DNA of 64,000 bases from Eledone cirrhosa (taxonomy: Eukaryota): positions 46,934,001 to 46,998,000 of the forward strand of contig OZ024749.1 in the NCBI GenBank assembly GCA_964016885.1, in the 5' to 3' direction. Of this stretch, positions 10,925 through 62,078 are shown piece after piece. The position numbers and the translations under genes were made by a program. The notes below the pieces were generated by a model that saw only the letters and a list, made by a program, of their open reading frames with translations, was not told where the DNA came from and made no database searches. Position 1 is the stretch's first letter. Every line of letters starts with the position of its first letter.

Positions 10925-10980
10925 AAGATCCCGTTAACAGTGAAATCAGCGATTCTTTGATTAAACTTTATTCTGTTATA

Positions 10981-10985
<5 letters not shown>
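10925..10985 (+). mobile_element. short 3' fragment of PLE family F with a partial hammerhead
   Basis: AAGATCCCGTTAACAGTGAAATCAGCGATTCTTTGATTAAACTTTATTCTG matches 55143-55200 and the reverse complement of 60430-60495; flanked by (TA)n. Confidence 0.75.
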
Positions 10986-11067
<82 letters not shown>

Positions 11068-11908: not shown

Positions 11909-12634
11909 GATGGCATAACTGATAATGCTCTCAAGGCATTATTTTTATATACGTAAAAACGGTTGTACAATTCAGCAAAAGTAGGCGACTTGCACTTCTA
12001 AGAACGACTTATTAGAACCGATCTCTTAACACTCTACGTTCAGATTCAAGACAGTTAAATGTCATTTATAAGATCTTCACGACCCAGTCTCCTCACGATG
12101 AACATTTCGAAGATAAATGTGAACATTCTGTTTTAATTAATAACTATCTGTCATGCTTTCTCACTTCGTATTTCGAATGTGATGTCACATCACGCATAAT
12201 CCATCCTAACTCACTAAATAACATGCAAACATATATGTTTAAGAGAATCCGCCTGAGGTCAGACAACATAAATACCGTGTTTCACTATAGGAAAATGGTA
12301 CATTATATTCTGACAGATGGGATAATTTTATTAATTTCACTTCATAGTTATTTAATTGTCATTGATTGTACTCTTTTAAGTCTGTTCATACACCTTAGCC
12401 ACCAGACGGAGTTGATGATACGACTTTCGGCGCTTTCAATTAGTGGGTAATTCATTGCCACTAAATTAGAGAATGATAAATTTAGCCGTCTTATACAGGC
12501 TCTTTTGTCCACCATGTAAATTTGAGCTCTATTTAAAATGTATGTTTTGCATGAAATAATTTATTGTCTCATTTTCTTCAGATATTGCATCACTGGAAAC
12601 ATATATGTTTACACTGTTGAGCCAATATTATTAT

Positions 12635-12820
12635 GATTGGCCGTACCGGTAGAGCGTCGGACAGCTAGTTTGCAACATAGAGTTTCGGCACTTTACGATC
12701 AGATATCAAATACTACCGCGGTTAGCTTTGCCTTTCATTCTTACGGGGTCGATAAAATAAAGTACCAGTAATGCGCTGGGATAATTGCTGCCTCTGTGCC
12801 AAAAGTAGAACAAATTATTG
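12635..12820 (+). mobile_element. tRNA-derived SINE, diverged copy
   Basis: Aligns by eye to 52351-52545 (TTTGCCTTTCATTCTTACGGGGTCGATAAAATAAAGTACCAGTAATGC ... AAAGTAGAAC). Confidence 0.85.
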
Positions 12821-14283
12821 TGATTGTCGTCGCACTAGGAAACTGTTTGTGCTTCTATGAATTATATTTTTTTCGTCGGCAGAGAGAAATGTATATATCA
12901 ATTGATTTTATCGAGATTTGAAATGATATTTCAAGGAAATACATAAGGAAATACAGCAAGGCAATTTTCCACGATATTTCAACATATTATTAATATTAAT
13001 ATTATTTATTTTAAGTACATAAACTTTAAGACACGAAGCTTTAGTAAAGTCGAAAATTGAAGATAAAGATATACGAAATCAGCAGAAAAATATTCTTAGG
13101 AGAAAATTGAAATAGATAATTAATAGATTAATATAGCTTCATATTTAGCAAAACATCCTCCAGAATAAAGTAACATTAGGATTCATATTCCTAGTTTTAT
13201 TGACACTGTTATTACTAATATCGTTAATATTATTATTGTTATTCTTATAAGCAGCTCTAAAACAAGTATGAATAAACAAAACTATTACATCGACTTATGA
13301 AAAAGATGATAATGATAACAAAAAGGAAATAGTAATATTTATATTAATGTTTTTTTATGATTAGAGAAAATCTTGTGCGAAACTAATTCCGATAAGAAAA
13401 AAATTGCCCCACAACCGTCTACTTCTTATTTATCGCATCTCAATTTAATGATACAAGAGTTTTTTAATAAAGACCAATTTTGGTGGTGGTGAATATATCG
13501 AAAGTACATCCGTCCAGCGTAAATATATATCGCTACCAAACACAGATCACCGCAGAATCACAAAGCACAGATCGGCATAAACACATTAAACATTTCAAAT
13601 TATCGCTGACTACAGCCATTCAAATTCAAGAGAACTATTACAATCAGGGATATATATATATATACCCATTTTATTTCAATGTTATTACCGTCAGGTATTC
13701 TATCGTATAATGATATATATAATTCCCTTTCCAATAGTATGGAGTACTAGGTTGTATAAAGAGTGAAGCCTCTCGTACTCAAACATACACACATACACAC
13801 AAACGTACATACATACAGATACGTTGCACGGACGAACGTAGGCGTGCAACTTCATACATCCAAGGTGATTAATATTTTATGCTTGCTATTCCCTTCTATA
13901 TCTTTGAATAAGAAACAAATTCGGAGGATTCAATCAGATTGTAGCTAAACATATTTACGTCATGGCGTACAAATGTAAATCAGATTTGGGCATATATGAA
14001 ACATTCAAGTCTTCTGTATTTGAAGAGAAAAAGTGATTTTAAATTTTTTATAAAATTACAACAAAGAATAAAGTGAATATAGACTAAAAGGAAATCCAGT
14101 GTGTTCTACCAGGAAAACCTAGACGTAATGTAAATATCAGAATAACATGTTTTGCTCAAAAACAATACGTTTTCATGGCATGGTCGACGCTTGGAAATGT
14201 ATTGCCATATACCTGGATTCACGTTTATATATATATTTCCATTCTCTCTGCTACTCTCTCTCTCTCCCGCCCCTCTCCCTCGA

Positions 14284-16844: not shown

Positions 16845-17001
16845 TGATCAGAAGATCGCGTTAAGGGTGAAAGCAGCGATTATTTGCTTAAAATTGAATC
16901 TGCTATTTTAATAAATATTTGCTCTACGGTTCTTATATATTTGATATATTTTTATACTTATCGAGCCCTCTTTGGATTTTAGTCTTCAAATTTATTATTA
17001 T

Positions 17002-17005
<4 letters not shown>
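16845..17005 (+). mobile_element. 3' end of PLE family F with a variant hammerhead
   Basis: CAGAAGA TCGC gttaa GGGT GAAA GCA..TGC TT, then tail GAGCCCTCTTTGGATTTTAGTCTTCAAATTTATT matching the reverse complement of 60345-60385; ends in (TA)n. Confidence 0.85.
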
Positions 17006-17063
<58 letters not shown>

Positions 17064-18574
17064 AAGTAAGTCCATAGATCATTAGATAAAATATATACAG
17101 TAGTTCTTCTCCCATTCAGCATAATCAACCATACAACACATCATTTAAACGAGGTTATGGGTTTAAAATACCTATGAAGAATAATAGATAAATAAATGAT
17201 ATCTTTTAATCCGCGATTCAAGCCACAGAAAATTTACCTAGTATTTCTGAGAGCATGTAGAAATTGACTAGACATACAGCTAACCATACATAATTCGGTA
17301 CAACATGAAAGTTAGTGGAATAAGTGTACATAAACATACCAAAATCATCACACACGCCTTGGTATTATGCCAATACTATATATCATTTCACACCTTTTAT
17401 TATTAAGGTTTTTGATGTTCTATTGAGAGAATCGATTTTACTGAAAATATCGAATAACGTACACCATTTTACCAGGAAAAAAATACTGGTCCACCCACAC
17501 ACACACACGCACACATTCTCAAACACAACACACACGCGTACATTAACATACAAAGATACATATACACACACACACGCACACACACACACTTCTCCGTATA
17601 AGACAAGAGCTGAAAAATATCTTCTAACATGTTAAAATATCCCCCACTCACTTACAGACACATTCCTACTGACGATCACTCTACCACGAATTACTCTGCT
17701 ACACACACACTTACACACACACACACACACACTTGTCTTAATAGGCATTTGAACTGTCAACAGGCTGCGGTTCGCACACACATATTTGCTGATCATTATC
17801 ACAACAACGAACACTTTACTATTACTACACACACACCATATTTGTTGTGAACGAGTCATTTCTCAGTCAGCCGACATAAACCTACATTTGGCGCAAATTT
17901 AATTGTTTACATTTTCACAAGACCTCTACCGACCAATCAACATTTTGGCCACAAGCATTTTTGCAACACGAATTGGCGCAAAACTTATTTTAATACCGCT
18001 GGAGCCACTTTTTTAACATAAAAACAGGTACACTTCCCAAAACTAATCAGATAAGAGCAAACATCACGGATGCTTTATCTCAAAATTATTTTTGAAAAGC
18101 ATTAGAAATGCGCAAACGGTAAAACATAAAACCCAAACTGAATACTAACCAATACAATTACTAAGGCTCACTTATTCCTAATTGAACTATTTTTCACTGT
18201 GAACAATTTGTCAGCATTTTCTATTCCGCATTATATATATTAAATGTTTACATTGAGTTAGAAACTCAAATAGTCTCTTACAACAAAATAGCTCTAAGAA
18301 AGAGATATTTCCGAGCCGTATATTATAATAGAATATAAAAGAAAACCGAACAGATATATATAGATATATGTGTTCAAATCGAAAGGGACCTGATTTGCTA
18401 AGCTGAAAAGAATACTAACTATAGACAATTGGGTTCGCTTGTCTCAATTTAGGAAAGACATTTAGAAAATAAATAAAAAACCGGAATTGTGGTAATCATC
18501 AATCATTCAGAAAACTTGTTGTTTCGCAAAGTTAATTGTGAATAGAAATACTATTGCAAGCTCATTATTATATC

Positions 18575-18649
18575 GTGGTCGATAAAATAAACTACCAGTA
18601 ATCCACTGGGTTATTGCTGGCCTTGTGCCTAAAGTAGAAACGATTATTG
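18575..18649 (+). mobile_element. SINE 3' fragment
   Basis: GGTCGATAAAATAAACTACCAGTAATCCACTGGGTTATTGCTGGCCTTGTGCCTAAAGTAGAAAC. Confidence 0.85.
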
Positions 18650-18886
18650 TATACGGCTCCGAAATATCTCTTTCTTAGAGCTATTTTGTTGTAAGAGACT
18701 ATTTTGAGTTCCCAACTCAATGTATACGTTTAATATATTCGTCTCCGCTAACTTGTCGAGCTATTTCAAATGTCGAATAAACCTGGCTGCTATTTTTAGT
18801 GGTGTGGATTTGTGAGACTCGCCAGGATGCCATGTGCGCTGTTTTATTTTTTATATAGAGCATACATTGATGGTGTAGGATAAGCT

Positions 18887-18964
18887 ATCACCCACTGATG
18901 AGCTTGGATTAGTATTTCTATTCACAATTAACTTTGCGAAACAACGGCAAGTTGTCTGGGTGAT
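18887..18964 (+). ncRNA. type I hammerhead ribozyme
   Basis: Stem I ATCACCCA/TGGGTGAT (8 bp); CTGATGA; GC..GC; GAAA; stem III CAAC/GTTG; GTC cleavage triplet. Confidence 0.85.
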
Positions 18965-19128
18965 TGCTAGTTGCCACAATTCCGGTTTGTATTTATTTTC
19001 TTTATTTTTTTCTTAAATTTAGACAAGCGAACCCAATTGTCTATAATTAGTATTCTTTTCACCTTAGCGAATCAGGTCCCTTATCATTTGAACATAAATA
19101 TATATATATATATGTGTCCGCTTTTCTT

Positions 19129-19194
<66 letters not shown>

Positions 19195-20369
19195 AATAGA
19201 GAGAGCGAGAGGGGAAAGTGGCTGACAGAGATTTACTTATAATAATTCCTAGAACCCTTTAAACATATCCCTCAATAAACGATACGATACTTAATAAGAG
19301 TCATTTCCATTTGAACACATTGTGTCTCTATTTCATATCGTGAGTACAACTTGACATATTTAGGGGAAATGTTGTTCCCTTTCCATCACACTTGGAAAAA
19401 GGTATTCTTTATCATATAGAAGATCTGTTGACATCATGTGCACGTTTGCGATTATATATTACCTCTTGTGTAATAATCACGTTAGAGAAACAAACATGTA
19501 CCGTTTTGTTTTGCCTACAGACATGTTCGTAATTAAATTTGGCGGATTTCTTTGGATGCGGCAGTAGATAAAAGGCATCATGATGTGAGGTTATATTGAA
19601 CATAGACACGTGATATTGCCATGGATAATCTAAAGTTGCTCTACACCCTCGTGGAATGGTGTGGTTATATTTATGTACGTTTAGGAACTGGAAACAAGAC
19701 TCAGCCCTCACTGTGAAGGCATCCAATGTCACCAACAAATACGTCAGATGCAGAAATAATCAAAGCGATGGTGACTGTTTTTTTTCGACTAACACCGTGT
19801 GTGTGTATATGTATGCATGTGTGAATGAGTGTGTTCATGTGTGCATTTGAATATATGTACATGTACGTGTTAAATATCCGTACAATTATATGATATTATT
19901 CCGGTGACTGTAAAATGAAAAGTCGGATTATTGATTTCTTCAACTGAAACAAATATGAAAGGAAGTATTCAGAGATATGAAAATTCCTTATTTATAGTAA
20001 ATATCCACTAATGTTTGCAATATAACGCTGCTCGATATTCTACTATAACTGAAAACATATGTCATCCATAGCTTTCTACACCGTTCTGATATTAATCTAA
20101 ATCATTTTTACTGCAACTAGAGAGAATAAGCGTATGCATAAAACAACATTCACAATACTAGACTAAAAAAAATATATCGTACCGTATTGTAGGAGCAACA
20201 CCTGAAATATAACAACAGATACATAAATATGTCCTAACATTTCTTTGTTTATATTGTTCGATATTTATCCACATTACAACTTCTCCTAAACTTCCACTTG
20301 GTTCTTGCATGTGTAAAAATATTAATGGTGTCTGGAGAGTATTATTGACATAGACAGATGGACACACAC

Positions 20370-24277: not shown

Positions 24278-24465
24278 GGATTGGCAGTATCGGGAGAGTG
24301 TCTGACGCCATGCATTGACGCATAGAGTTACGGTCCTTTATGGTCTGAGTTCAAATCTCTCCGAGGTTAATTTTGTCTTTCATCCTTGCAGGATCGATAA
24401 AATAATGTACCAGTAATACACTGCGATAATTGCTGACCTTGTGCCAACAGTAGAAACAATTATTA
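24278..24465 (+). mobile_element. tRNA-derived SINE
   Basis: A-box-like TGGCAGTATCGG, B-box-like GAGTTCAAATCT, shared core and AGTAGAAACAATTATT tail. Confidence 0.9.
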
Positions 24466-25394
24466 TATTAGTTGAACATCAATACTTGGATCTAAATCAA
24501 TTGCAATGTTTGGACATACTGTCTATACAGGAAATGATTTACCTTCGTTTACAATTTGTTCCATAAATTTCACTTCAATTTCTAGCATGCCTGAAGAACA
24601 CTTTCATGACTAATTTGTTTTCCTGAGTATTGTGAGCAAGTCTAAGATCCACACATACATGATAACATTTCCCCCTTCACTATGAATGTATCAGCTATTT
24701 CTAGCATATGTAAAGACACCTCTAATGGTCACTTTTTTACATGTTTTCCTGATACTATAAGGCATACTACATCAATATGAATTGTTATCAAACAAGATGT
24801 ATGGCATAAATAATTCACTGCCTGTATTCTATAATAGAATATCAATAATATTCTGCCATTCCTAACAGGATTAATCATACAGGTATCGCAAAGGGAAATT
24901 CGACGAAAGCAAATATTAAACATCCAACATTTCAGCTGATATTGGATGCTCAATGTGATATTCCTACATGCTAGTTATAATAGGTAAATTAAGTGAAATC
25001 ACAAAATACCGTGGATGTTCGTATTTAAAACAGTGTCATATTTCATTGTGTAGTCGAAGGTAACAAGGGTCACATTTAGCATTAATATGTTCTATATTAT
25101 TTGGGAAGATATAAACAATATACAACATATACCAGAGAATGTAATTTGCTACGATTCAACTAAATCTAAATGTTATCTCACTGTATATACTTGGATTATT
25201 GCATAAGGTTTCATAGATCACGCCTGTGAGGTGATGCTAATTAACACTAATGGTACTCCACAATTATGAAGCATTGGGTGTACGCTGGATTGTATTATTT
25301 TGTTATTTGTTTGGAATTTTTTTTTTACTTGCAGAATATTGTTTTTATACTAAATTCAAGTGAACCATATGCTTTAATCCGTATGCGAGCAAAT

Positions 25395-27309: not shown

Positions 27310-28032
27310 CATTTAGAAAAATATATATACGTCTCTGCGTATATATATGGATGTGTGTGCGTGTGTGTGTGTGTTTATATGTGTAACAATTTCAAAAGAA
27401 TGATGAAGACATGTAAGATTTGTTCTTTGTCTAACACGTGTTTGAACATGAGGATGTATGAAATAAGTAAATGGAAATAATCTCGATGAAGCTAATTTTA
27501 GTATATATAACATAGATCGGCATCGAAAATTTGCAGATCAAATTGATTGCTTTACCTGCAACCAAATTCCACATAGCTCATCTGTCTTGAAATATATTAT
27601 AAACTACAACAGAAAACAAACAAAGAAACATATGAGCAATTAGGAGATTAGGAGATATAGACAAATGTATGTATATCTATTAATATCTGTTGCAATATGT
27701 CTATTCACTCGGAAGGACTTTACCACTTTTCGGAAAACTAATGAAATGTGTTTCCACGTCGAAATTATCAAACAAGACAACTTGTTTCCAAACACTAAAT
27801 TACACAACTTCAGTTTTCACAAGTATTTTGCTACCAACTCTATAATTTCTATAGAATCATTTTCAGCTATAATCATAGAAAAAGAAGATAAACACACACA
27901 CATGTATACAGAAACAAGCAGACCTATGAGTACATACAAAGAGACACACCTGCTGATATTAACCCACGCACGCAAAAACACATAACTAATTGTTTCTACA
28001 TCAAATCAGTCCATAAAGGGGCATAAATCTTT

Positions 28033-28295
28033 TCTGCAAAGCATGGCGTCCGACCATCTACCGGTACCGCCAATCCCGCGCGCCTCACCATAAATAATTG
28101 TTTCTACTTCAGGTACAAGGCCAGCAATTACCCAGTGCATTACTGGTACTTTATTTTATCGACCCCGTAAGGATGAAAGGCAAAGTCAACCTCGGCGGGA
28201 TTTGAACTCAGATCGTAAAGGGACGTAACTATGCTGGAAAGCATGGCGTCCGACCCTCTACCGATACTGCCAATCCACCACCGCCTCACCATAAA
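28033..28295 (-). mobile_element. tRNA-derived SINE, full copy plus the head of a second tandem copy
   Basis: Reverse complement of the 52351-52545 family; AAAGCATGGCGTCCGACC occurs at ~28038 and ~28238. Confidence 0.92.
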
Positions 28296-34458: not shown

Positions 34459-35420
34459 GTCTCATATACCTAAAGGGCGTGTTTTCTGTGTATGGGAGAG
34501 TGTGTGCGCATAAATCCTATATGGTCATATCGGAAAAAGGAAATAAATTGCCTTTCACCTAAGCTAATTTGCAGTCCTTGCACTTCCAGAGTATATCCTG
34601 TCCTTTCGTTGTCTAAATTGGCATCATGCCGCTTTGTTAATTTAAACCTTCTATTGGAATTTTCCTTCCTTGCAGGCAAATTGATCTAACATAAAATCCT
34701 GCAAATATCAGTTGATGGTAAAGTTACGTTTTTCATTTATGTAATACGTTTCGATTCGGTAGAGACGTTATCGATCACAGAGACATACTGTAATTTTTTT
34801 ATTGCCAATTGCAGTGTTTCGACAAAAAACAAATTCTACATTCAAAGGAAACCATATTAAAAAAATACTTTCACGACGATGCTTATGAAATAAGGTTAGG
34901 AATGTTTAGCATAGAAAAATGTGTGTTAATGATTACACGAATTCTGTGAGTAACATTCAAAATAGACACTACCACTAAGTAATTTATAATACGTTTTAGA
35001 TTAATGCTGATACTGGTGTGGAACAACAACGTACAGAGTTGTTAAGAATGTTTTACATTATTTGTTTAGGTTTTGTTTTCTTTTTAGCATTTTGACTTCA
35101 ATTTTGAACAATAATTTATTTATCGCTTCTTGAAATAAAGGTTCGGATCACTGGTTCAGGACTAGCTGTGATCACTTGGTATTTATATGATTGAAACAAT
35201 GAAATATACATGTTATTAAATAGACACCAATGGCATGACGACGGTAGCACATATGTTTGCGATGAGGATGCCATGAGGGTTTCTTATACATTTAAACAAT
35301 ATCTCTCAATTGGAGGGAAAAAAACAAAGGAAACAACATATATTAAAGATGGGCTACTATGACATAATTTATATGTCACAACAGAACACACGGCGCACTC
35401 GTCTAATAGGTCTCTAGAAA

Positions 35421-35540
35421 AATAATTGTTTCTACTTTTGGCACAAAGCCAGCAATTACCCAGTGCATTACTGATGCTTTATTTTATCGACCCCGTAAGG
35501 ATGAAAGGCAAAGTTAACCTCGGGTGGATTTGAAATCAGA
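35421..35540 (-). mobile_element. 5'-truncated SINE
   Basis: Reverse complement of the SINE from the B box to the tail. Confidence 0.9.
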
Positions 35541-36463
35541 ATGGTCACTAGAAAATAAAACGCAACAGAATGATGTATATATCAAATAAATTATCTCCCT
35601 ATCAGCTGTAACTATATGAAAATATCTATTAACGCACCAAAAATAAAATATATTTTATATGAGAGTAAAGATAATGGAATTACCTATATTTGGACTCCAT
35701 GATGAATAAAACAAAGACCCTCATACAAACATAAAAATATATCCAGATGCAACAGGAGCATTTTGTGAACCACACTTTATAATAAAACGAGTGAAGAATA
35801 GATAAATGTCAAACCATGTTGAAAAACAATTCTGCCCCAGAAATAAAACCATCAGATTAAAATCAGATTAAATTATATTATATATTCAGTCGCAATTCTA
35901 AAAGCGTGAGTCGACGAGTTTAGCTATAGTGCAGTTAAGACAAACTTCACCAAAATAATGGAATAACCATACTACACTTAAATCTAAATTAAAATTATGC
36001 TTGCATATCCAGACGTGTCAATCTCTAAAAACCTTAACGGAGGGTATCATTTTCGCATGAGAAGACATCTATTACAAATACAAAAGTGATTGGGCGATCT
36101 CCTCGTCGGACGGGGAGAGTGGCCATGTTTGCATATCAATAAGTGAAATGAAGTAATTAGCATTATCATTTAAAAAGAAACATGTAAACATTTATAATGA
36201 TGTTGTTTCCCCCCTGTTTTACCCTTTTATTTTCCTTTTTATTACCTTTTCCTTCCTTTATATATTTTTATCTCTCTCTCCCACTTTCTCCCCAATAACC
36301 TCCAGTTGTTATTGACGCACTGGGATGAAACATCTTGTCTTTAATGCGTAGAAATAGCCATGACCTCCAGCAGAAAAATGATGAAAGAAAATGTTCTCAC
36401 GTTCATGCTTTCCTCTTATGTACAACTAATATAGCAATTACACAGCCCCTGTTTCTTCTTTTT

Positions 36464-39894: not shown

Positions 39895-42800
39895 TGTCCA
39901 TCTACAGCGTGATAGTGCCACACAAAAATCACCGGGAGTGATGAAATCACCGGAAGTGATGAAATCACCGGTGGTTATGTAACCATACATTCACCAATCC
40001 TCGATAAGAATGTTTAAATGTCGAACCTAAACAGTTCGAATAACGGTGAAGTGGAGACTAGAATGTCATGTGACAGACTCTCACCAAGCAGGTGCTCCTT
40101 GGCTCAGCAGCAGGGACCTGGCTGTCAACCAATTAGTGCTGGTGTCGGAGGAAGAAGAAGAAGGAAAGGGGCCAGAACGAACTAGACGAAAGAATTGAAT
40201 AGAACGGTTATGCAATGTTACCTGAAGAGTAACCCCAAGGAGAAAGGCTATAGAAAACGGATGCATAACATCTGGAACGAGATTGGTCTATTTAAATTAG
40301 ATGAACAAAAATTGGCCTGGCAGGCTCGGGTAATAAGAACTAATGGCTGGATAAGCGAGCTGGAACTAGGTGAACTGAGTAGAGAGATTAGGTTGGACAT
40401 GGAGAGTGGAGTATGCCAGGCAAACGAGCCAGTGGGAAATAAAGCTAAAGAGGTTGACAGAACGGAGGAACCATCCCAAGCAGACAATGATCTGAATGCT
40501 GAAATAAATAATACCCGGAACAAAGATTCGGCCATTGAGGAGATGAATGCTGACGGGCTAGACCAAGATTTGGTTGATATCCTAAACTTAGTGGTAGATG
40601 AATTGAACAATGATAGTGGGAAACCTATGAACCATAGATTTGTAGACAGGAAAAAGTTAAAAGAAACAACAGCTAAGGTAAACAAAGTCATCCCATACCT
40701 TGAGGCGAGGAGCCTTTACCAGTGCAACACTATCCTCAAAGCAACAGCAAATGTAGTGAGAAAATTACTTGGTATAAAAGTGAGATGAAACAACAAAGAA
40801 GAAAGATCAGAGACTTGGTGGAAGAAACGACTGAATGATCAAATCAGGGAAATGAGAAATGACATTGGAAAGCTTGATTCTCTACTGAATGGGACACTAA
40901 AAAACATACACACTAAAAATAGACTGGAAATAAAGTACAAAACTATGAGGAAAAAGCTAAATATTATCATAGAGGAACTGAAGCAACGCATTGTAGCAAA
41001 GAGTGCAACAATTAGGCGATACGAGAGCAGAGTCTGTCAGTATAGACAGAACTGCACCTTTGAAAACAACCAGAATATGCTGTTTGGACAGCTTGAAGGG
41101 AAAGAAAGAGGCAACGACTTGATCCCTGAGAGGGAACAAACTAACACATTATGGAGAGGAATATGGGAGCAGGATGTTAAACATAATGACAAGGCAGTGT
41201 GGTTTGAGACAGTACAAAAGGAGAATAGGGAACAGGCACACCAACAAACTGATTTGAGTATCACAGTTGAAATTCTTAAGGGGCAGGCCAAAAATCTAAC
41301 CAACTGGAAATCACCAGGCCCAGATGGTGTGCAGGGGTATTGGATTAAATATTAACATCCCTCCACCCGAAACTGACAACCATGTTCAATGTCTGCTTGA
41401 TGTCAGGTGAGGTACCAGAGTGGTTGTCAAAAGGTACCACAGTTCTGGTAATGAAATACCGAATCAAGGGTAATGATGTTACCAACTATACACCTATCAC
41501 ATGTCTGTCCGTAATGTGGAAACTGTTGACAAGCATTGTGTCTGAGGAAATCTTCCATCACCTCCACACAAACAACTTGTTACCGGACGAACAGAAAGGA
41601 TGCCGAAAGAAGTCCCGTGGTACGAAGGAGCAGTTACTTATTGATAAGATGATAATGAGGAATTGTAGGAGGAGACACACTGAACTTGCCATGGGATGGA
41701 TAGACTACAAAAAGGCATTTGACATGGTGCCTCATTCTTGGATAACCAAAAGCCTAGATATCTTCAAGGTGGCAGATAACATCATACAGTTGTTGGGCAA
41801 AAGTATGAAGTCCTGGAAAACAGAGTTAACATCAGCTGGAGAATCCTTGGGAGGCGTGAAGATCATGAGAGGTATCTTCCAGGGAGATTGTCTGTCCCCT
41901 CTGTTGTTTGTCTTTGCCCTGATGCCCCTGACCATTATACTGCGAACAGTGAGAGCAGGATAAAAGTTGGGAAAGGGAGAGCTTACAATCAATCACATCC
42001 TCTTCATGGACGATCTTAAGTTCTTCGGGAAGAGTGAGAAGGAGTTGGATGTGCTTGTTGACACTGTCCGTATTTTCAGAAATGATATATGTATGCAATT
42101 TGGTATTAGTAAGTGTGGAGTCTTTGTGATGAAGAGGGTAAATTGAGCAGAAGCAACGGAATCCAGGTACGAACAGGTGAGATGATAAAGGAAATTGACA
42201 CGGAAGAAGGATACACGTATTTGGGTGTTCTGGAGGATGATGACATCAAGAACAAAAAAATGAAGGAACTGATAAGATCTGAATACAATCGGAGAGTAAG
42301 GAGCGTATAAAATTCACATCTGAACAGTAGGAATGCCATACGTGCAGTAAATTCCCGAGCTGTGTCTATTATTAGGTACAGTGCGGGAATTCTGAGATGG
42401 AATGTTGCTGAACCAAAAGAAATGGATAAGAAGACTAGGAAGCTATTGACTATCTACAGCATGTTCCACAAGAGGAGTGATGTAGATAGACTCTACTTAA
42501 GGAGATCTGAATGTGGAAGAGGTCTTATCAGCATAGAGGACTGTTTCAAATCGAGAAAAACAACCTACACAAATACGTGACTGATGGTAAGGAGCCAATG
42601 CTCAGAACTGTACTGAAGGAGAGGACAATAGACCAGCGGATATCCAGGGAGGAAATAACAACAAGGAGAAAGAGCAGCCTTCATGAAAAATCCCTTCATA
42701 GCACCTTCTTTGAGAAAACTGAATTCATAGATCCACAGACATGGAACTGGTTGAAAAGAGGAGACCTTAAAAAATGCTACAGAAGGAATGCTAATGGCTG

Positions 42801-43520
42801 CCCAAGAGCAGGCCCTCAAAACGAAGTGGTTGAAACACCATATTTACAAGTAGGAGGCTAGCCCACTGTGCAGGATCTGTGGAGAGAGAGAGGAGACTGT
42901 GGCTCTCATTGTATCCGAGTTTAAACACCTAGCCCAGACTCACTATAAAGGCTGGAGACATGATGTGATGGGCAGGATGATCCACCGACACCTATGCAGA
43001 GTAAACAATTTACCACATTCTGAGAAGTGGTATGGGCATAAGCCAGAGTAGTTGATAGAAAACGATCGGGTGAAGATGCATGGTATATTAGGATACAGAC
43101 GGACAAGAAACTGGAACACAATAGACCTGACCTGGTGGTTTTGGACAAGGAAAAAAAGATCGTGCCTGATTGTGGATGTGGCCTGCCCATTCGACACGAG
43201 AGCTCAAGAGAAGGAGAGGGAGAAAATCAACCGATACCAGAAATTAAAGTGGGAGGTAAAAAGGATTTGGAACTGCCACGAAGTCAAAGTGGTCCCGATT
43301 GTCATAGGCGCACTAGGTACTATCTCAAAAGGTTTCCAGGGATGGTTAAAGAAAATTGGCCCCGCCACGCTTTTTGGAACACTTCAAAAGGCATGCTTGT
43401 TGGGAGCAGCAAGAACCCTCCGAAACGTCCTGAATATCTGAGGCTGCAGGTAGTGACTTGATATTCATTTCAACAAATTTCCCAGTTAACTAACATTAAT
43501 GACTGAGACTCAAAGAACAA
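39895..43520 (+). mobile_element. R4/Dong-clade non-LTR retrotransposon, near full length
   Basis: Single-ORF organisation with RT followed by a restriction-like endonuclease; short 3' UTR runs into (TAA)n-like repeats. 5' boundary is approximate. Confidence 0.9.
40018..43441 (+). pseudogene. disrupted polyprotein: N-terminal domain, reverse transcriptase, decayed CCHC knuckle, PD-(D/E)xK endonuclease
   Basis: Motifs VMQCYLKSNP..GYRKRMHNIW, KSPGPDG, NYTPITCL, EQKGC, WIDYKKAFDMVPHSW, RGIFQGDCLSPLLF, HILFMDDLK, YLG, CRICG, RHD, HNRPDLVV, IVDVACPFD, VVPIVIGALG; several stops and frameshifts. Confidence 0.93.
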
Positions 43521-45861: not shown

Positions 45862-45864
<3 letters not shown>

Positions 45865-46362
45865 CGGCGATGAATTATTTTTGCGAGGTTTTTTATATTA
45901 AATCGTATGTCGAAACGAAATATTGTTATACTTGGGGAGGGTCATATTTGTGTAATAATATTGCCAGAATTAATAACAGAACACACATCAAACAAAACAC
46001 TATACACACACGCAAACGCATGCGCAGAGAAGACAAACAAATAAACACATAAATAAATAAATAAATAAACAGACTAAATAAAGTTGACGTAGGCATACAA
46101 TACAACGGGAGGAAACATAATAGTGTCACTGACGATGTTGCAGATGTACGACGAAAGAACTTTGATAGACTATATATATGTGTTTGTGTCTATATTGTAA
46201 CATCGAGGACCGAATAAATAAAATTAACCGATATAAAATATATAGAAGCGATATAACCGATATAACCGACATAGAAGCGAAAACAAACCAAAGACTGAGT
46301 GTGTTCTGTTATTAATTCTGGCAATATTATTACACAAATATGACCCTCCCCATGTATAACAG

Positions 46363-46365
<3 letters not shown>
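45862..46365 (+). mobile_element. non-coding element with ~62-bp inverted arms around a hammerhead
   Basis: 45925-45987 is approximately the reverse complement of 46299-46360. Confidence 0.85.
46124..46167 (+). ncRNA. minimal type I hammerhead
   Basis: TGTCA CTGACGA t GTTG cagatgta CGAC GAAA GAAC TT TGATA. Confidence 0.7.
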
Positions 46366-46406: not shown

Positions 46407-47054
46407 GTAATATAATAATTATGAAGACTGAAATCCAAAGAGGGCTCCTTATCGGGAACTTCTGAAACTAAAAATGTCAATCTGTGAACGCAAAGTAAAT
46501 ATTTCAAAAAAAGTTGCAACCGGAGGAAGACAGGAAGACGAGACTTGTGTTCGTGGAAACGTTACCTGGCAAAGAACGGAAAAAAAACGAAGATAATACG
46601 TCATTATTTGGACCGTTGACAAACAATTACGCGCCAAGACAAGACCTCGTTGATGGTATAAAAGAAGTCGTATACTAATATTCTATTAGGTGGTTCATGG
46701 AGTTGTTCTCTGGCAATGAATGGAAAAAAAACGTCATTAAGTGGAGCGTAGAGAACAAATGGACGCAAAGAAAAAACCACGTGGATGGTATAACTGAAGT
46801 CGTAGACTAAAATTCTAACTAGGAAACCGAACGATTCTCGGCTTCAGAGTTAAGAATAAAGTAAATAAAATACAGTGGTAATTGAAATAAAATAAATACG
46901 TACACGCATCCAAATACGTACATGCACAATCAGACGGGACAATACAAATACAAGCACGTACACAAAAAAACCCGCACGCACATACATAATCCACGCAACG
47001 CCTGTACCGGCACACTTACGAATGTATACACCAAATACGCATAAACATATATAA

Positions 47055-52156: not shown

Positions 52157-52546
52157 GGTGGTTGATTGGCAGTACCGGTAGCGGGTCGGACGCCATGCTT
52201 TCCAGCATCGTTACGTCCCTTTACAATCTGAGTTCAAATCCCGCCGAGGTTGACTTTGCCTTTCATCCTTACGGGGTCGATAAAATAAAGTACCAGTAAT
52301 GCACTTCTTAATTGCTGGCCTTGTGCCTAAAGTAGAAACAATTATTATTAGGGCGGTGGATTGGCAGTATCGGTAGAGGGTCGGACGCCATGCTTTGACG
52401 CATAGAGTTACAGCCCTTGCCAATCTGAGTTCAAATCCCGGCGAGGTTAACTTTGCCTTTGATCCTTACGGGGACGATAAAATAAAGTACCAGTAATGCA
52501 CTGGTTAATTGCTGGCCTTGTGCCTAAAGTAGAAACAATTATTATG
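52157..52546 (+). mobile_element. head-to-tail SINE dimer
   Basis: Two ~195-bp copies with A-box-like TGGCAGTA(C/T)CGG and B-box GAGTTCAAATCC; preceded by (ATT)n. Confidence 0.95.
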
Positions 52547-53522: not shown

Positions 53523-53852
53523 GAAAATTTAAGTAAGTAAGTAAAAAAAAAAAAAAAAAAAAAATTTTTTAAATTTTTTTAAAAAATATTTTCTTATTTT
53601 ACGTCTTTTATATTATTGTTCTGCATTCTCCTGCATTGAACCACCTAGGTACTATGACATAACCTGTGTATTTGCTAGCATGGGCGTGCATCTGTGCGCT
53701 TATGTTAGTTGATATATTAAATTATCTATATATATATATATATATATATAATTATAACAATAATAATAATAATAATACCGAAAGCACCGATTCTTTGCTT
53801 AAACTGTAATGTTTTATTTTAATAAATATTATCTATATATATATATGTATAT

Positions 53853-55040: not shown

Positions 55041-55064
55041 ATTGTTCCACAAACAAACGTATCG

Positions 55065-55201
55065 TCTTCCCCTCTTCCTCTGGTTGCAACGTCTTTTTAA
55101 ATATTCACTTCTGCGTTCACATATTGACTTTGTTAGTTTCAGAAGATCACGTTAAGCGTGAAAGCAGCGACTCTTTGCTTAAACTTTAATCTGTTATTTT
55201 A

Positions 55202-55208
<7 letters not shown>
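55065..55208 (+). mobile_element. PLE family F fragment with a complete variant hammerhead (55135-55185)
   Basis: AGTTT CAGAAGA TCAC gttaa GCGT GAAA GCA gcgactctt TGC TT AAACT. Confidence 0.82.
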
Positions 55209-55261
<53 letters not shown>

Positions 55262-60344: not shown

Positions 60345-62020
60345 ATCATAATAAATTTGAAGACTAAAATCCAAAGAGGGCTCGAAAAGGATAAATATAT
60401 ATGAAATATATAAGAACCGTAGAGCGAATATTTATTAAAATAACAAATTAAATGTTAAGCAAAAAATCGCTGCTTTCACCCTTAACGGGATCTTTTGAAA
60501 CTAACAAAGTCAATCTGTACACGCACATGTGGCTATTTCCAAAAACGTTGCAACTGGAGGAAGACAGTAAGACGATACTTTGGTTTGTGGAAACGTTGCC
60601 TGGCAAAGAACAGGAAAAAACGAATATAATACGTCATTAATAGGAGCGGTGAAAACAATTAAGCGCAAAGACAGAACCACGTTTATGGTATAAAAGAGGT
60701 CGTAGACTAATGTTCTCTTAGGTGGTTCATAAAGACGTTCTCTGGCAATGAACGAAAAAAACAAAGATAATACGTCATATGTGGAGCGTGGAGAACAATT
60801 GCACGCAAAGACAAAACCAAGTAAATGGTATAGAAGAAGTCGTAGACTAAAATTCTAACTCGGAGACCGAATGAATCTCCGCTTCGGAGTTAAGAATAAA
60901 GTAAATAAATAAAATACAGAGGTAATATAAATTAAATAAATACATACACGGATACAAATATGTACATACACAAGCATACACGAACACACTTACCATAGGT
61001 ATACAAAACCACGCACATATAAATATGTGTGTGTGTGTGTGCGTGTATACAAATAAATAAACAATTAAATAAACGTATATAAATAAATAAATACGTATAT
61101 AACAAGCGCACACACATACCTACATGTAAATACACAAATGTTCGGAGACGTAAGTCAACCAAAACATGAGGTAGATATATAAACCCTATATAAATAAAAT
61201 AAATACGTACACGCATACAAATATGTACATACACAAGCATACACGAAAACACACCCTACATACGTAAGAACCTGCATACTCACACAGACGCAAAAGTCCC
61301 GTATATACAAAATCAAACCATATGTACCAGAATATATAAAATTATACGCCATAACATATGCAATCAAATATACGTACGAGAAAGTATACGTACCTTCACA
61401 AAACATACAGGTAATATATACTTACCTATGCAAATAAGTAATAGTATGAACAAAACATATACTTAGCTACACATCAAGACGTAAAATATCCACGTATAGA
61501 TCGTACTATCCGTTAGGTTATAACGTGGGCTGTAATACAGGAATGTTTTGTGCAATTTATGTTTACAAGCCGAAATTGCGTCAGATTTTTTGTTTAAGAT
61601 GTGGTCTGTGGCGTAGTGTATTTCTAGGGTCTCAGCGGCGCAGAGGTCACATGGTCTTTTATTTCCGTTATACAATCTAGCCCTAGCTAGGATCTTCCAG
61701 TGTAACTTATATTGGGTGTGGTTGTCTTTTAGACTCCAGATAAAAGCAGAAAGTGACGTCATATTCCTTTTTAGAGGGTAACGAAAAGAATGGGTATGCA
61801 TGTAAAGACGCTGCTTGAATCTATTGTCGTTTAACCCTATGTAGGCCCTACGGGACGTGGGTGTTTGAACCTTACATTTGTAGACAATGTTACTAGAGAG
61901 GCATTTCCCGGATAGGGGGCAATCAACCCGATTCCTACAATTACAGTTAGAGAAGATCCCGGTAAGGTTGAAACCAGCCATTGTTTGCTTAAACTTTAAC
62001 CTGTTATTTTAATAAATAAA
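60341..62020 (-). mobile_element. 5'-truncated Penelope-like element (family F): endonuclease end, ~1.1-kb 3' region with a hammerhead at 60452-60502, inverted hammerhead fragment at 61951-62020
   Basis: GIY-YIG ORF, shared family tail, inverted 3' piece at the 5' junction, (TA)n flanks. Confidence 0.88.
61463..61950 (-). CDS. PLE GIY-YIG endonuclease domain (N-terminally truncated, no RT)
   Basis: CNCRxxxxCPLxGxCL, IVY..YIG, FKQRxxxH, TSLSxFIW, WKIL, CDLCxxE, LNKK..CKH; the first ~10 residues of the listed ORF come from the inverted non-coding fragment. Confidence 0.85.
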
Positions 62021-62078
62021 TATATATATATATAGGAAGCCCTTATTGCATAGCAAACCATGTCACTCTTGTTTCTTG

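Follow-up and report, generated by a model that had tools for sequence, protein, structure and literature searches.

We found that one locus in the window (the whole 64-kb stretch of DNA analyzed here) is likely one insertion of a hammerhead element that has no coding capacity and measures about 490 nt, either a non-LTR retrozyme or a non-autonomous Penelope-like element (PLE), which was copied from head-to-tail RNA and mobilized in trans by a PLE reverse transcriptase-endonuclease. Judged by analogy, its arrangement is the published Penelope-like insertion pattern, which the initial annotation had overlooked. The locus can be explained by known biology and appears, from its sequence, to work like a PLE-mobilized element with sequence-level features of a retrozyme. 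Because any tandem-derived PLE-type insertion looks permuted in this way, the locus shows no new mechanism.

The insertion consists of two arms in opposite orientations. In a blastn self-comparison of the window, B of the plus arm (18898-19151) matched the minus strand from 18565 down to 18319 (218/255, E 1e-75), and A (18643-18738) matched it from 18329 down to 18235 (88/96, E 2e-33). This confirmed the order first annotated: A-x-B on the plus strand (85% identity in B, 92% in A), versus B-A in the inverted arm, where B directly adjoins A at about 18330 of the minus strand. The arms differ by 7-15%, B more than A, and their 5' ends face each other with a 75-nt SINE fragment between them. No second copy of x (18739-18886) was found by nhmmer within the 64-kb window. 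The parts, from left to right, are as follows.

18235..18329, minus strand: A of the inverted arm, a one-sided 3' extension (tail), from blastn; it ends at the common 3' terminus of the family, with a TA-rich flank.
18330..18565, minus strand: B of the inverted arm, from blastn, 5'-truncated inside the hammerhead core, with a 3-nt deletion in loop III and a decayed 3' strand of stem I.
18564..18573, plus strand: the inversion junction, where the inverted arm and the start of A share 2 nt; its 10 nt match 18643-18652 at 9/10.
18574..18648, plus strand: the 3' ~73 nt of a SINE, including its tail, from blastn self-matches.
18649..18738, plus strand: A of the direct arm, the 3' end of the upstream partial unit, from blastn; the alignment extends back to 18643.
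18739..18886, plus strand: x, the stretch of the unit that precedes the hammerhead, present in many copies in the read data and once in the window.
18887..18964, plus strand: type I hammerhead ribozyme motif, from a descriptor scan, with a predicted cut after 18956.
18965..19135, plus strand: the remainder of B, from blastn, ending at the B/A junction of the unit.
19136..19191, unstranded: (TA)n microsatellite at the right end, the likely target.

The plus arm measures about 493 nt, and its start and end fall on the same B/A junction, within about 10 nt. Marks of a PLE-type insertion are present in the form of a 5'-truncated inverted copy head to head with a direct copy, and of a partial tandem, in which A precedes x in the direct arm although A is the 3' terminus elsewhere. 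The one-sided extension is about 95 nt here, as against the published 30-40. TA-rich sequence lies at both insertion ends, in a window that is AT-rich, full of microsatellites (GC 0.33 over 18001-20000) and of animal type, perhaps like a cephalopod genome; an outer target-site duplication is unreadable because the (TA)n at 19136-19191 hides any.

The element is non-coding: stops break all six frames, and we found no long reading frame in either arm and no reverse transcriptase (RT) or endonuclease frame. An autonomous PLE, with RT plus GIY-YIG reading frame, was rejected because neither arm has a long frame. A start codon does lie inside the hammerhead core, as in some PLE pLTRs. We claim no remnant ORF, since this codon meets a stop four codons later in both arms.

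The hammerhead features listed in the initial annotation were all found at 18887-18964. Stem I has 8 bp (18887-94 / 18957-64), the core is intact (CUGAUGA at 18895-901 and GAAA at 18938-41), the cleavage triplet is GUC (18954-56), and stem III has 5 bp with a loop of 5 nt. Stem II had been described as having only a 2-bp base; this base (18902-03 / 18936-37) is indeed 2 bp, but the 32 nt that it closes can form, in a prediction that keeps the core unpaired, an 8-nt bulge followed by a distal hairpin. The plus-strand hammerhead was the sole match of the descriptor in the window, and among 200 shuffled windows none gave an equally strong match and nine gave a loose one. Rfam returned no matches at gathering score over the whole window. 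A 1.3-kb scan gave no hammerhead and five weak unrelated matches in 18000-19300, and a 151-nt scan gave a sub-threshold match to the RAGATH-1 hammerhead (14.3 bits, E 4.1). In fold predictions, an alternative structure with a paired core was more stable than the active fold by 4.3 kcal/mol at all three lengths tried, so the hammerhead copy in the plus arm is probably impaired. As for the inverted copy of the hammerhead element that had been annotated, the inverted B-A arm is real, but it starts at 18565, inside the core, and therefore holds no complete ribozyme and cannot cleave.

To look at other copies of the family, we used four of eight sequencing runs, aligned to 18640-19142 at 80% likeness: X1 and X2, contigs from two runs of one sample; X4, contigs from a second organism; and X6, raw reduced-representation reads. 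The aligned records numbered 1,109 (X1), 1,242 (X2), 8 (X4) and 1,701 (X6), counts that do not equal copy number. Likeness to the locus was below 95% for 756 of the 1,109 records in X1 and 863 of the 1,242 in X2. The family is many-copy and non-coding, and its unit measures about 490 nt. Coverage in X1, X2 and X6 extends over A, x and as much of B as could be read. Depth over the end of x was very low (53-564, versus peaks above 145,000), and therefore few copies resemble the present one there.

Loose ends before 18949, in eight X1 contigs and nine X2 contigs, belong to a subfamily with a different, longer loop III. The base of stem III is altered in this subfamily but keeps the potential to pair, a hint of selection for the hammerhead fold.

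Other copies also bear on the order of the parts. The A-x junction is bridged by records 1, 9 and 17, with 14, 18 and 12 differences, respectively, and x-hammerhead-B is bridged by record 11 (18760-19001). The table of joints held no B-to-A (go-back) joint, but it is blind to B-A, as the last 58 AT-rich letters of the query (the end of B) were skipped as repeat. Read by eye, the 30 nt immediately preceding A in two X4 contigs match the end of B (23/30 to 19109-19138), and the last 12 of them match the junction of the inverted arm at 11. By the same means, 106 X6 reads were seen to agree with the inverted arm at its B/A junction in 28/30 letters, although only 4 of these letters are B. Since A-x and x-B are contiguous elsewhere and B-end sequence directly precedes A, the order B-A-x is cyclic in the family and not local to this locus, the B-A part being taken from loose ends read by eye. 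The initial annotation had called for a search for B-A junctions at other loci, and had held that adjacency unique to this one would undo its reading; B-end sequence is found directly before A elsewhere. Among the listed pieces none spans a whole unit or two hammerheads, and the multimer is for this reason pieced together from three separate junctions.

The same data speak to the ends of the element. At 18737 and 18738, 175 and 213 X6 reads, possibly from few loci, leave the element for TA-rich sequence. They leave where the inverted arm ends, indicating that the end of A is a natural 3' terminus. Many copies stop at the end of A in (TA)n, as the inverted arm does, and TA-rich sequence also makes up the loose ends behind 18726, 18737 and 18738. 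Inversions are common among the copies: six of the seven listed joints change strand, one of them fitting the head-to-head layout via record 14 and the rest lacking orientation. At 15 of 25 listed variant sites in A or B, a biased list, the majority letter is unlike that of the plus arm. At six of these 15 sites the inverted arm carries the majority letter, at five it shares the minority letter of the plus arm, and at four its letter is a different one. These minority letters common to both arms fit, at the sequence level, a single event.

The five shared letters are also what a local duplication would give, and could thus be read as a local DNA rearrangement that created B-A after a plain insertion of A-x-B, as could the lack of a B-to-A joint in a table that skipped the AT-rich end of B. 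We nevertheless consider such a rearrangement very improbable. B-end sequence precedes A in contigs of the second organism and in reads unlike the locus, the inverted arm ends exactly at the common terminus of the family, and inversions occur in other copies too. Contiguous B-A elsewhere would speak decisively against it, and the loose ends largely amount to that.

Rolling-circle DNA elements also yield tandems and prefer AT-rich sites. A repeat of DNA-level origin, either a MITE or a Helitron-like rolling-circle element in which the hammerhead is incidental, could accordingly produce some of these features. It is a remote prospect, given that the hammerhead is complete beyond chance, that the 3' end is constant among copies and the 5' end varies, and that the inverted repeats are head-to-head arms and not short terminal repeats.

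The listed inversion breakpoints cluster twice, at 18949, 18952 and 18953 and at 18772, 18778 and 18778, one of the clusters lying 4-8 nt upstream of the predicted cleavage site. Three of 12 breakpoints fall in one 8-nt bin, with a P of 0.001 raw and of 0.06 after correction for the choice of bin. Given this corrected value and the small numbers, we set the clustering near the cleavage site aside as evidence. Exact-motif scans gave no loci in metagenome contigs (two motifs) and none in viral contigs.

The SINE fragment reported at the inversion junction was confirmed at 18574-18648, with six other matches in the window that are 81-91% alike. Full copies of this SINE are about 195 nt, and all six of the others aligned end in the same tail. 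From its box A and B motifs we take it to be of the tRNA-derived type; ARAGORN found no tRNA gene. The 10 nt to the left of the fragment match the 10 nt to its right at 9/10, and match the start of A. This flanking repeat is possibly a target-site duplication of the SINE, although the right copy overlaps the SINE's own tail. With the SINE removed, 2 nt are common to the inverted arm and the start of A.

The SINE probably inserted later, which is likelier than its capture in the same event. In a capture, reverse transcription would have switched templates, leaving A at its start and continuing from the 3' end of a SINE RNA. Capture could account for a SINE 3' tail that directly adjoins A, points the same way and looks like the first letters of A, as well as for a likeness to other SINE copies whose spread is similar to that of the arms. 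Even so, it seems unlikely: the inverted arm is separated from the SINE by 8 nt that match neither SINE nor hammerhead, the junction nucleotides agree with the start of A at 9/10, as expected of a target-site duplication, and of the 255 X6 molecules at the start of A, 137 stop at that point without running into SINE letters. Two full SINE copies of ~195 nt stand head to tail behind an (ATT)n tract at 52157-52545, and more copies lie at 28016-28282, 35418-35544, 24278-24466 and 12634-12823.

We propose that the PLE-type insertion took the following course. The unit x-B-A would be transcribed as head-to-tail RNA, in which the hammerhead would cut multimers to monomers, and the endonuclease would nick both strands of a TA tract. 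A first cDNA would start at the end of B and run through B, the hammerhead and x, and then continue past the unit junction to reach A of the upstream unit. A second cDNA, on the other strand, would start ~95 nt further 3', at the end of A, and stop in the hammerhead core. The two cDNAs would join head to head via the 2-nt overlap, and a 5'-truncated SINE would later enter the AT-rich junction. The permutation follows because A is both the tail of the inverted arm and the upstream-unit end of the direct arm. As for the autonomous partner, no element with matching ends was found within the 64-kb window, and the PLE remnant present there shares no detectable sequence with the unit.

The template had been described initially as a circle of ~490 nt or a head-to-tail multimer. 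Head-to-tail order is supported by the contiguity of A-x and x-B and by the B-end sequence before A, but a circle is only allowed, since the same DNA would result from a linear multimer, a template jump or a circle. A narrower version of the PLE-type reading, in which the template is a covalently closed circle of ~490 nt and the direct arm is one full turn from the AT-rich B/A junction, is conceivable but doubtful. The one hint of a circle at this locus is that the start and end of the direct arm coincide within ~10 nt of 493, a coincidence with unit length that we estimate, from one locus, at about 4% under uniform truncation. Circles are the form in which animal retrozymes bearing type I hammerheads build up (PMC7229834), and the 5-bp stem III suggests that the hammerhead could act as a monomer. 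However, this is one locus only, the junction is AT-rich with a 2-nt overlap, in itself favoring a join there, and other inversion joints start elsewhere. Moreover, the stability of the circular fold did not clearly exceed that of 40 shuffles (z -1.5), and unprocessed RNA is given as the main template in the one PLE tested in vitro (PMC11167929, available text). We put forward still more tentatively that retrozyme copies may carry the whole PLE insertion signature, the direct arm being exactly one RT turn around a closed RNA circle of ~490 nt. If this one-turn reading were true, it would be direct DNA evidence of PLE enzymes copying retrozyme circles.

The preferred reading, a PLE-type insertion from head-to-tail RNA, agrees with what the available text of earlier work describes. 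PLE insertions show partial tandems, an adjacent 5'-truncated inverted copy, a tail of 30-40 bp at one end and a (TA)n bias, and non-autonomous head-to-tail PLE forms exist (Craig 2021, PMC8557442); head-to-head is the usual PLE arrangement (Arkhipova 2013, PMC3846280). Pairs of hammerheads occur on opposite strands, 100-700 bp apart (Cervera & de la Pena 2014, PMC4209133). A PLE protein nicks and extends both strands, with two internal start sites that define the tail, and was active in vitro without need for hammerhead cleavage (Frangieh 2024, PMC11167929). Animal retrozymes occur as circles, with PLEs proposed as their movers (Cervera & de la Pena 2020, PMC7229834), and co-occurrence and pLTR phylogeny were later added for this link (Li, Clavereau & Pollet 2026, bioRxiv 10.64898/2026.07.22.740005).

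As far as those sources describe them, metazoan non-LTR retrozymes resemble the present family in being non-coding, AT-rich, many-copy units with a type I hammerhead and head-to-tail order (PMC7229834), and monomer copies are common in their families. The ~490-nt unit lies within the retrozyme range of 51-972 bp of Li et al. 2026 and slightly above the 150-450 bp of Cervera 2020 (PMC7229834). Unlike in these retrozymes, stem II here is a 2-bp base plus bulge and hairpin, and no two-hammerhead tandem is present among the listed pieces. The word "inverted" is absent from the main text of Cervera 2020 (PMC7229834), and the available part of Li 2026 (bioRxiv 10.64898/2026.07.22.740005) describes no insertion anatomy.

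Likeness to the endonuclease-bearing PLEs (Penelope/Poseidon, Neptune, Nematis and Naiad), again by the available text, lies in the partial tandem, the head-to-head 5'-truncated inverted copy and the extension at one end (PMC3846280, PMC8557442, PMC11167929). The (TA)n target is also PLE-like, and those PLEs bear a hammerhead in their terminal repeat. By contrast, the element here has no RT/endonuclease frame, a tail of ~95 nt rather than 30-40, and a full stem III in place of the minimal hammerhead form of PLEs. Non-autonomous Chlamys elements such as MRC1 are similar in part, as they form pLTRs and head-to-tail multicopy insertions (Craig 2021, PMC8557442); the same text places them in green algae, in a clade mostly without hammerheads, and gives them 3' sequence common to known autonomous families.

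PLE mobilization of retrozymes has been proposed, in the text available, from the common hammerhead type, co-occurrence and pLTR phylogeny (PMC7229834; bioRxiv 10.64898/2026.07.22.740005). A retrozyme-like family with PLE marks, namely an inverted arm, a one-sided tail and TA targets, supports this proposal more directly, and its many copies would permit counts of reverse-transcription starts and stops. In literature searches that covered mainly freely accessible papers, we found no published description of this family.

Two elements unrelated to the A-x-B unit show the same head-to-head build in the window, in keeping with the PLE-type reading. No similarity to A, x or B was detected in either of them. 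They and their parts are as follows.

60429-62034, minus strand: truncated Penelope-like element, with a GIY-YIG remnant from 61945 to 61463.
46447-46935, 16848-17033, 55045-55224, 10925-11006 and 53780-53845: further pieces of Penelope-like elements.
~45862-46365: small, young-looking element in TA/CA repeats, with a 67-nt inverted arm (97%) and a one-sided extension of ~58 nt.
46129, plus strand: candidate minimal hammerhead within the 45862-46365 element, with a stem I of 5 bp and a stem II of 4 bp.

The GIY-YIG remnant was recognized only by Atlas (score 0.97, eukaryotic clusters), Pfam giving no families for it. An inverted copy of the 3' end of this Penelope-like element lies at 61945-62018 and is 84% alike.

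In 92 X6 reads with a loose end before 18664, an A-like stretch is preceded by 16 letters identical to 46161-46176, which form the 3' strand of the candidate hammerhead at 46129 (one window match, versus 0.04 expected). This junction represents either a truncated copy of A behind a ribozyme of the 46129 family or an A module common to both families. The window also contains a broken non-LTR retrotransposon on the plus strand at 40186-43461, with an RVT_1 domain at 41349-41963 (E 2e-13).
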